A stretch of DNA of 917 nt from Escherichia coli. Its GTDB lineage: Bacteria; Pseudomonadota; Gammaproteobacteria; Enterobacterales; Enterobacteriaceae. Below the pieces are notes generated by a model. The model was given only the letters and a program-made list of their open reading frames with translations. It ran no database searches and was not told where the DNA came from. The position numbers and the translations under genes are program-made. Each line of letters begins with the position of its first letter. Position 1 is the stretch's first letter. This document shows, piece by piece, positions 46 through 917 of the stretch. Where the stretch lies: assembly GCF_003334335.1 (NCBI RefSeq), contig NZ_QOWQ01000139.1; one strand, given 5' to 3'.

Positions 46-126
46 ATGAGCAAGAAATTTACAAAGACTATTCTTTCTTCTGCTGTTGCCGGATTGATGT
101 TTGTTAGTTTTAGTTCGTTGTCTGCA
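46..126 (+). other. Predicted Sec-type signal peptide (aa 1-27), cleavage most likely after LSA (A27|K28); no lipobox Cys, so not a lipoprotein
   Basis: Residues 3-4 are KK, followed by a hydrophobic stretch ILSSAVAGLMFVSF and then SSLSA before KP. This follows the general n/h/c architecture of signal peptidase I substrates. The exact cleavage site is an inference. Confidence 0.6.
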
Positions 127-917
127 AAACCTACCGACAGAGTTGTAGGAAAGTATACAATTAAATTTTTTGGAGAAAATGGTGAGCAAGCAACAATTTT
201 TGACAGCGGTAATAAAGTAATTATTGCTGACACGGTCACAGGAACTATTACAACGTTTAATAGCGGTGAGTTGGAGAAAAAAGTAAATGGTATAGATGTA
301 GAAAAAAACAAGGATAAGGTTCAATCACTTCTGGAGTCTGTTCGTTACACTATTGATGCACCGTCTTTAAAAAAAGAAAATTTGGATAATATTACTGCTG
401 AAGCTCTTGATAAAATAAAAACTAATGTAGAAGCTGTTTCAAAAATAATCACATCAGAAACTGCACCTGCATACAATGCAGCAGTTCGAAGTGGTATGAG
501 TTCAGAGAATGCTCTAAAAATTGCTGGAGAAAAAAATGCTTCTGTTTTACTTAATGAATTCGGCAAACTCAACAAGAATGTAAATCAACTGAATAAAGAC
601 ACTACTTTTGCAATTGACGCTGACGGCAACATTACTCTGAATGAGACAGCCGGTACAGGTGAGCGCTATGGTGTGAAGGATGTTGTGGCTGATCTTGTTG
701 CTGACACGACTGTGTATGCCGAAGAAGATGGCTCACTGACGATGGATAACAGTGCTCCAGCAAGAAAGCGTGTTAATGAAGCACTGGTTGACCTGGACAA
801 ATCTGTTCGTGAGCGTACCACTGTTGGTGTGAGTTCTGACGGCACCCTGACCCGTGCAGAAGGTGCAAAGAACACCATTTCTGTTAACGATGGTCTGGTG
901 GCCCTGTCTGGTCGTAC
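46..917 (+). CDS. Hypothetical secreted repeat-containing protein, 3'-partial (290 codons visible, continues past the window end)
   Basis: Manual translation of frame +1 from ATG 46-48 runs to the window end without a stop. An in-frame TAA at 25-27 lies upstream and there is no other ATG/GTG/TTG between it and 46, so the start is unambiguous in this frame. The N-terminus MSKKFTKTILSSAVAGLMFVSFSSLSA|KP has a basic n-region, hydrophobic core and small-residue cleavage region. The translation is non-repetitive and non-low-complexity in its first part, unlike the antisense ORFs. No family assignment could be made from memory. Confidence 0.85.
   Translation, partial: MSKKFTKTILSSAVAGLMFVSFSSLSAKPTDRVVGKYTIKFFGENGEQATIFDSGNKVIIADTVTGTITTFNSGELEKKVNGIDVEKNKDKVQSLLESVRYTIDAPSLKKENLDNITAEALDKIKTNVEAVSKIITSETAPAYNAAVRSGMSSENALKIAGEKNASVLLNEFGKLNKNVNQLNKDTTFAIDADGNITLNETAGTGERYGVKDVVADLVADTTVYAEEDGSLTMDNSAPARKRVNEALVDLDKSVRERTTVGVSSDGTLTRAEGAKNTISVNDGLVALSGR
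601..917 (+). repeat. Three degenerate in-frame tandem repeats of ~35-37 codons, each opening with TT-[FV]-x-x-x-x-D-G-x-[IL]-T; the third is cut by the window end
   Basis: Repeat starts at codons T186 (nt 601), T221 (nt 706) and T258 (nt 817): TTFAIDADGNITL / TTVYAEEDGSLTM / TTVGVSSDGTLTR. The D-G-x-[IL]-T cores are at nt 622-636, 727-741 and 838-852. Conservation is at the protein level; the DNA copies are clearly diverged, so this is not a recent duplication. Confidence 0.6.

Follow-up and report, generated by a model that had tools for sequence, protein, structure and literature searches.

Positions 46–917 of the window (the whole 917-nt stretch of Escherichia coli DNA analyzed here) almost certainly belong to a lysogenic-conversion (moron) gene of a lambdoid phage and make up the 5' 69% of this gene, which lies on the plus strand and encodes a 419-aa Eib-family trimeric autotransporter adhesin (TAA, type Vc), with the minus-strand ORFs over the same region being non-coding. 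The initial annotation had placed the real gene on the plus strand, and public annotation, homology, selection and ORF integrity all agreed with this placement. The window was 100% identical to positions 38262–39178 of Escherichia phage PhiR5_2 (PV340546.1), in which a plus-strand CDS of 419 aa, labeled "hypothetical protein", starts exactly at window position 46. The gene extends 388 nt past the window to a TAA stop. In seven homologous loci (phages PhiR12_1, PhiR5_1 and P-EibA, and four E. coli chromosomes), a plus-strand CDS is annotated from the ATG equivalent to window position 46, and none of the eight public records (PhiR5_2 and these seven loci) has a minus-strand CDS annotated over the region. 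A literature search on PhiR5 and PhiR12 yielded no relevant paper.

Extent of the plus-strand ORF

The plus frame had been described as open across 872 nt. From the ATG at position 46, no stop interrupted it before the window ended at position 917, a length of 290 codons and 2 further nt. Positions 25–27 hold an in-frame TAA, with no alternative start in this frame between it and the ATG, and the stop-free run amounted to 296 codons. When the window was shuffled 5,000 times with dinucleotide composition preserved, a run of 290 codons was never reached in any of the six frames; the longest stop-free run per shuffle averaged 90 codons (standard deviation, 22; maximum, 242). The length of the plus-strand ORF was far beyond chance, and the lengths of the minus-strand ORFs were not.

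The plus-strand gene was missing from the ORF track, which had a listing threshold of 60 aa and omitted ORFs running off the source. As initially reported, all listed ORFs (exactly four) were on the minus strand and 70–104 aa long. The suggestion that the gene was missing for want of a stop codon inside the window proved correct: the sole cause was that the ORF runs past the window end, and in the full phage context it was listed as 419 aa.

Assignment to the Eib family

A homology search with the plus-strand translation, which had been proposed as a check, returned 885 homologues (E≤1e-3), the top ones being E. coli "YadA C-terminal domain-containing protein" entries; a situation in which minus-strand ORFs have homologues and the plus-strand translation has none therefore cannot arise. 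Many of the best homologues were partial and lay on ~1-kb contigs. A 343-aa partial protein found in E. coli isolates was 100% identical over all 290 window-encoded residues. These 290 residues alone gave nothing significant in Pfam or NCBIfam. The diagnostic anchor is encoded further downstream, and the protein was assigned to its family from sequence past the window end and from homologue searches.

The full protein matched phrog_9547 end to end (5e-184) and EibA at 7e-119, with residues ~256–419 nearly identical and the stalk ~99% identical; over residues ~256–350, the saddle and stalk segment, the match to EibA was essentially complete. Its C-terminal part matched Pfam YadA_anchor (PF03895; residues 361–419, 4e-16; parent locus L001 7126–7302, outside the window) and NCBIfam YadA_autotrans (9e-19). 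Sequence matches in the PDB were EibD (2xqh, 2.7e-32; 2xzr, 5.8e-27) and the YadA anchor (2lme, 1.5e-18). Features of type Vc autotransporters were found by model and sequence, namely a YadA-like anchor, a predicted Sec signal peptide and a coiled-coil stalk, as were those of the Eib group (saddle together with a left-handed coiled-coil stalk, Eib-type N-terminal domain, lambdoid prophage position). Against the model for YadA orthologues (NCBIfam NF033478), the protein scored 67.8 bits, over its C-terminal 100 residues only, versus a cutoff of 750, and it is therefore no orthologue of YadA.

Eib proteins are TAAs that bind the Fc of IgG and IgA, and the anchor, the left-handed coiled coil and the saddle are common to all of them (PMC12511318). 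SDS-resistant multimers have been reported for Eib proteins, and their expression is reportedly raised in static culture (PMC5450701). By analogy with the family, a 12-strand trimeric barrel is expected for the plus-strand protein; the structures here were modeled as monomers, although a trimer is the expected form, and pLDDT was low in the saddle and anchor regions.

Predicted anatomy of the protein

The gene and the encoded parts are as follows.

46..917, plus strand: Eib-family trimeric autotransporter adhesin gene, 5' part (codons 1–290 of 419, 69%)
46..123, plus strand: predicted Sec signal peptide (residues 1–26, cleavage between S-L-S and A)
127..621, plus strand: Eib-type N-terminal domain (NTD; residues ~28–192, AlphaFold2 model)
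601..917, plus strand: three tandem ~36-aa saddle-like modules (residues 186–220, 221–257 and 258–~292; GC ~0.50)
Residues 280–360, plus strand, outside the window after residue 290: stalk, a long helix, continuous in the model and matching the EibD coiled-coil structures
Residues 361–419, plus strand, beyond the window: four anchor strands (Pfam and model; Foldseek match to 2lme)

The canonical signal peptide noted at the outset was borne out by the sequence, with n-, h- and c-regions all recognizable: the n-region MSKKFTKT carries a net charge of +3, the h-region ILSSAVAGLMFVSFS has a mean Kyte-Doolittle value of 1.87, and the predicted c-region S-L-S before A aligns with A-M-A before A of homologues. 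This peptide was conserved across 38 homologues and is common to EibA.

The region encoding the NTD is AT-rich (GC ~0.33). In the model of the domain, five strands form an antiparallel sheet, after which comes a pack of helices (pLDDT 85.2, pTM 0.72). Structure searches with it found no convincing neighbor in the PDB, and all 12 significant neighbors in AFDB50 were E. coli Eib-like proteins.

The three modules that follow share the motif TT-x5-DG-x-[IL]-T, and neighboring pairs aligned with z = 6.4 and 7.1, a quality that none of 2,000 shuffles attained. The third module, which passes the window end, is the conserved Eib saddle; it aligns to EibD 2xqh and is essentially identical to that of EibA. 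The structured repeats that had been claimed for this frame were thus present at the protein level as three modules, whereas repeats at the DNA level were weak.

Comparison with EibA, EibD and YadA

EibA (AAF63234), from prophage P-EibA of E. coli ECOR-9, is encoded at the same gene position as the PhiR5_2 adhesin. The two share the upstream block (162 of 165 nt invariant) and a similar signal peptide, and their saddle, left-handed coiled coil and anchor (residues ~256–419) are nearly identical. EibA has only an NTD and no beta-roll head (PMC12511318); the PhiR5_2 protein, too, has an NTD without a YadA-like beta-roll head, and no head or stalk domain of Pfam matched it. The passengers differ: residues ~27–255 are largely unalignable in DNA and show 25–50% identity in bins, the proteins are 51% identical overall, with many gaps, and the PhiR5_2 allele carries a longer NTD and two additional saddle-like modules. 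Immunoglobulin binding has been demonstrated for EibA, whereas for the PhiR5_2 protein it is predicted from sequence.

In EibD (PDB 2XQH, 2XZR), two regions of the stalk bind IgA and IgG (PMC7247746), and the PhiR5_2 stalk matches both structures. With YadA of Yersinia, the prototype of the TAAs, the PhiR5_2 protein shares only the C-terminal four-strand anchor, apart from the general lollipop plan; the collagen-binding beta-roll head of YadA is absent from it, with no match to a head-domain Pfam family. Short E. coli prophage alleles of ~355 aa (for example WP_001537314 in strain G6/7) agree with the PhiR5_2 allele in locus, in the 5' block, in the signal peptide and in the type of NTD, but lack an insertion of ~60 residues comprising the EibA/EibD-type saddle and Ig-binding stalk, and their anchor is of a different subtype.

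Minus-strand ORFs

None of the four minus-strand ORFs is coding; they are shadows of the sense frame or open by chance.

10–324, minus strand: 104-aa ORF, TTG start, codon-aligned antisense frame; a shadow, not a gene
30–311, minus strand: 93-aa ORF, TTG start, wobble-aligned antisense frame; not a gene
345–575, minus strand: 76-aa ORF, TTG start, wobble-aligned antisense frame; not a gene
666–878, minus strand: 70-aa ORF, ATG start, wobble-sharing antisense frame; not a gene

The initial annotation had called them antisense shadows, and this reading was upheld by the lack of credible families, by their disruption in most homologues and by lengths within chance. The 104-aa ORF is open because TTA, CTA and TCA are all absent from sense codons 1–93; a sense TCA at 325 closes it on its upstream side. 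A run of at least 104 codons occurred in 21.5% of the 5,000 dinucleotide-preserving shuffles. When the gene was recoded synonymously with protein and codon usage fixed, the longest minus-strand ORF averaged 98 aa and reached at least 104 aa in 19.5% of recodings. The 70-aa ORF is a product of truncation at the window edge; in the full context it starts at a GTG at window-equivalent position 1160 and is 164 aa long. In the short alleles, an ORF of ~212 aa lies in a different antisense frame, and alleles thus differ in which antisense frame is open. Lengths of 164 and ~212 aa were reached or exceeded in 24% and 22% of synonymous permutations, respectively.

None of the four ORFs matched NCBIfam. 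In PHROG, the best match of all four was that of the 93-aa ORF to phrog_38331, an unnamed family (E=0.0044); the best match of the 104-aa ORF was not significant (E=0.068), and the 76-aa and 70-aa ORFs had no match in either NCBIfam or PHROG. The 164-aa and ~212-aa antisense ORFs had no family matches. Where a gene is conserved, its antisense strand is conserved with it, and homology matches there would not discriminate between gene and shadow. An exact-sequence look-up in ~15 billion predicted proteins found none of the four, which argues mildly against their being genes. Of the seven homologues, only PhiR12_1, whose allele is 97% identical, retained the 104-aa and 93-aa ORFs, which were broken in the other six; the 76-aa ORF persisted in just two loci, those sharing the same mosaic segment.

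The description of the minus-strand ORFs in the initial annotation held in part. Their Phe/Cys/Ser richness was roughly right (F+C+S, 22–28%), but Cys was enriched only in the 104-aa ORF. They did cover 83% of 46–917, yet gaps remain in this tiling. The absence of start context was confirmed, with no Shine-Dalgarno-like motif upstream of any of them; the plus-strand start itself has only a weak AGGG.

Evolutionary test of the coding strand

Substitutions at plus-frame codon positions 3, 1 and 2 numbered 208, 150 and 103, respectively. The pooled Nei-Gojobori dN/dS was lowest, at a moderately low 0.56, in the plus frame and was 0.69 in the wobble-aligned antisense frame. Both measures discriminate poorly here because three of the minus-strand ORFs share their wobble position with the sense frame. 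We used a test of stop changes and replacement quality on nucleotide-only, gap-free blocks, which avoids the possible bias of an alignment guided by the plus-strand protein. The results were as follows.

Plus frame 0: synonymous changes 33.1%; stop gains or losses 0; mean BLOSUM62 +0.22; positive replacements 42%
Three antisense frames: synonymous changes 8.0–27.9%; stop gains or losses 7–44; mean BLOSUM62 -0.53 to -1.09; positive replacements 18–27%

No stop change fell in the plus frame, versus 7–50 across the other five frames, and replacements in the frame of the 93-aa ORF were non-conservative. A codon alignment guided by the plus-strand protein ranked the frames in the same way. The plus-strand ORF was intact in all eight loci (355–420 aa), with the same ATG. 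An apparent plus-frame stop in one homologue (L002), which is annotated as intact, vanished with gap-free or codon-aware blocks.

Upstream region and gene neighborhood

Two candidate signals precede the gene.

1..28, plus strand: candidate sigma-70 promoter from a consensus scan (-35 TTGAAC, 17-nt spacer, -10 GATAAT at 23–28)
34..37, plus strand: AGGG, a weak match to a Shine-Dalgarno motif, 8 nt upstream of the ATG, invariant in eight loci

The first T of TTGAAC is the base directly before the window, and the promoter-like match lies at 6000–6028 of the parent locus L001. The consensus scan found 5 sites versus 3.7 expected, a number that is not significant alone. Upstream of the ATG, 162 of 165 nt were invariant across the eight loci, and the candidate promoter lies inside this block; window positions 1–60, including the first 15 nt of the CDS, were 100% identical in all seven homologues. 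From these sequence features, we infer promoter function for the 1..28 candidate.

In PhiR5_2, the gene order is tail fiber, tail-fiber assembly, adhesin gene, and then ORF-156-like and ORF-60-like genes, and the order in P-EibA is identical. This lambdoid-prophage position downstream of the tail-fiber and assembly genes is paralleled in P-EibA and five other loci. A terminator-like hairpin follows the stop of the plus-strand gene on the plus strand. A search of Rfam with both strands of the parent locus L001 (5250–7450) gave no match at E≤1.

Mosaic structure of the PhiR5_2 allele

An identity table in 60-nt bins divided the window into three segments, each with a different closest allele.

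1–360: closest allele PhiR12_1, 95–100% identity
361–600: closest allele E. coli G6/7, 95–100% identity
601–917: closest allele E. coli 2012EL-2448, 96–100% identity
355..365, no strand: mosaic junction 1 (approximate), PhiR12_1-like to G6/7-like; megablast pieces end at 392
586..617, no strand: mosaic junction 2, G6/7-like to 2012EL-2448-like, coinciding with a GC step from 0.33 to 0.50

Outside its own segment, the identity of each of these alleles to the window fell to 31–66%. The best coverage of the window at a single place was at most 53% in any of the 5,426 complete E. coli genomes searched. In the protein alignment, there were two allele classes, with and without the segment of ~60 residues that comprises the EibA/EibD-type saddle and stalk, and the PhiR5_2 allele has this segment.

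We tentatively suggest that the locus may be an exchange cassette, although we hold this to be somewhat less than an even chance. The nearly invariant 5' block and the conserved 3' stalk and anchor would flank a hypervariable NTD, homologous recombination between prophages residing in the same cell would shuffle the surface modules, and the PhiR5_2 mosaic would be a fresh product of this process; the upstream block could hold an undescribed regulatory element. If so, shuffling of the NTD type, of the number of saddle modules and of the presence of the Ig-binding stalk would create new adhesin or immune-evasion specificities. The mosaic structure itself illustrates the diversification of prophage adhesins.

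Discussion

The reading of 46–917 as part of a working adhesin gene has to be weighed against two others. It is extremely improbable that at least one of the minus-strand ORFs is a real overlapping antisense gene, beside or instead of the plus-strand gene. The ORFs do exist, and one frame is open for 164 aa in context and another for ~212 aa in the short alleles, but the dinucleotide shuffles and synonymous permutations yielded such lengths by expectation, and the open frame switches between alleles while the ORFs are broken in most homologues. A fairly low dN/dS, such as the 0.69 of the wobble-aligned frame, is to be expected of a shadow frame whose wobble positions coincide with those of a real gene, and the antisense frames accumulated 7–44 stop gains or losses versus none in the plus frame, with non-conservative replacements. 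Apart from the marginal PHROG match of the 93-aa ORF (E=0.0044), which is not convincing, no family in NCBIfam or PHROG speaks for a gene; three of the four ORFs start with TTG, none has a Shine-Dalgarno-like motif, none of the eight public records annotates one, and no exact copy turned up among ~15 billion predicted proteins. Non-coding antisense transcription at the locus would be compatible with the sequence.

It is also very improbable that the plus-strand ORF is a decayed, recombination-scrambled pseudogene that merely stays open and yields no working adhesin. Such decay might be suspected from the three-part mosaic, from the "hypothetical protein" label in GenBank and from the genome search, in which at most 53% of the window was found in one place per genome among 5,426 complete E. 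coli genomes. The exact full-length 419-aa protein was also absent from the collection of ~15 billion predicted proteins, an absence that is uninformative for the plus-strand protein. The junctions, however, are all in frame, and the full-length ORF, signal peptide, NTD, stalk and anchor are intact. Each mosaic segment is 95–100% identical to intact alleles elsewhere, the NTD folds confidently in the model, the gene has its 5' block and, on the plus strand, a terminator-like hairpin, and the 343-aa partial protein identical over the 290 window residues occurs in E. coli isolates.

For the adhesin gene, the following route to the cell surface would apply. Transcription would start from the gene's own conserved upstream region. 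The predicted Sec signal peptide (residues 1–26) would carry the protein across the inner membrane, a function known from the family. At the C-terminus, each chain would supply four beta-strands, those of the YadA-type anchor identified by domain match, to a trimeric barrel of 12 strands, and this barrel would export the passenger, as in the family mechanism. According to the model, the passenger would display the Eib-type NTD atop the saddle-like modules and the coiled-coil stalk. Because its stalk is ~99% identical to that of EibA, the PhiR5_2 protein very probably resembles other Eib proteins in binding immunoglobulin Fc non-immunologically and in promoting aggregation or serum resistance. 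A role as a lysogenic-conversion factor for Ig binding, aggregation and serum resistance is probable.

The PhiR5_2 allele is a new mosaic within the already known Eib/TAA family, and current understanding of this family is unchanged by it. The GenBank "hypothetical protein" can be relabeled as an Eib-family trimeric autotransporter adhesin, a name that Pfam and NCBIfam cannot supply from the 5' fragment alone. ORF tracks or gene finders that drop genes at contig edges show only antisense shadows in this region. The risk of mis-calling is real because genes of this family often lie in pieces on ~1-kb contigs.

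Mosaic structure and allele classes of the eib-like gene

The eib-like gene in window 1-917 is a clean mosaic of three segments, each of which is found in a different source (PhiR12_1, E. coli G6/7 and E. coli 2012EL-2448). Identity to each of these sources was 95-100% within its own segment and 31-66% in the other segments. The junctions were located as follows:

near window 360: mosaic junction 1
window 586-617: mosaic junction 2, at the same place as the GC step from 0.33 to 0.50

Protein alignment separated two allele classes at this locus, of ~355 aa and ~420 aa. The longer class has both the EibA/EibD-type saddle and the Ig-binding stalk, whereas the shorter class has neither. 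One protein, P0052 (471 aa), carried an additional copy of the saddle-like module; therefore, module copy number is variable.

Invariant 5' block

In eight loci taken from various phages and strains, 162 of 165 nt 5' of the eib-like ATG did not vary. Over window 1-60, identity was 100% in 7/7 homologues. Past the signal-peptide coding sequence, the DNA was unalignable. The features below are placed on L001, the Escherichia phage PhiR5_2 locus that holds the window (PV340546.1):

L001 5881-6060: invariant 5' block (window 1-60 plus the preceding 120 nt)
L001 about 5903-5943: near-perfect inverted repeat GGAAATTCCGAA ... TTCGGAATTTC, about 60-100 nt 5' of the window

The inverted repeat sits inside the invariant block, and its counterpart is annotated as a stem_loop upstream of eibA in the record of the ECOR-9 prophage P-EibA. 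The block could anchor recombination, act as a regulatory region under constraint, or do both.

Tail region of PhiR5_2

In PhiR5_2 (61.5 kb), for which a literature search found no publication on the PhiR phages, the eib-like gene is flanked on each side by one tail-fibre module, followed by lom:

L001 2690-5249: tail-fibre module
L001 8228-11118: tail-fibre module

The presence of such modules on both sides suggests that this tail region is recombinant or duplicated.

Minus-strand ORFs

Minus-strand ORFs were found in the tfa-eib intergenic region, upstream of the window, and over the stalk and anchor:

L001 5436-5585, minus strand: 49-aa "hypothetical protein" of the PhiR5_2 record
L001 5639-5788, minus strand: second 49-aa "hypothetical protein" of that record
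L001 6666-7160, minus strand: 164-aa ORF over the stalk and anchor
L002 (homologous locus with a short allele) window-equivalent 541-1179, minus strand: ORF of ~212 aa in short alleles, in a different frame from the 164-aa ORF

The two 49-aa ORFs may be over-calls, because they are absent from the RefSeq annotations of homologous E. coli loci; several terminator-like hairpins lie on the minus strand of this intergenic region. The 164-aa and ~212-aa ORFs might tempt a naive gene caller. Since their lengths were both within the synonymous-permutation expectation and neither had a family match, they are shadows. In the homologue search, many of the best homologues of the plus-strand protein were "partial" and came from contigs of about 0.8-2 kb. 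The eib-like locus seems often to break short-read assemblies, and assemblies broken in this way are where shadow ORFs on the antisense strand could be annotated by mistake.
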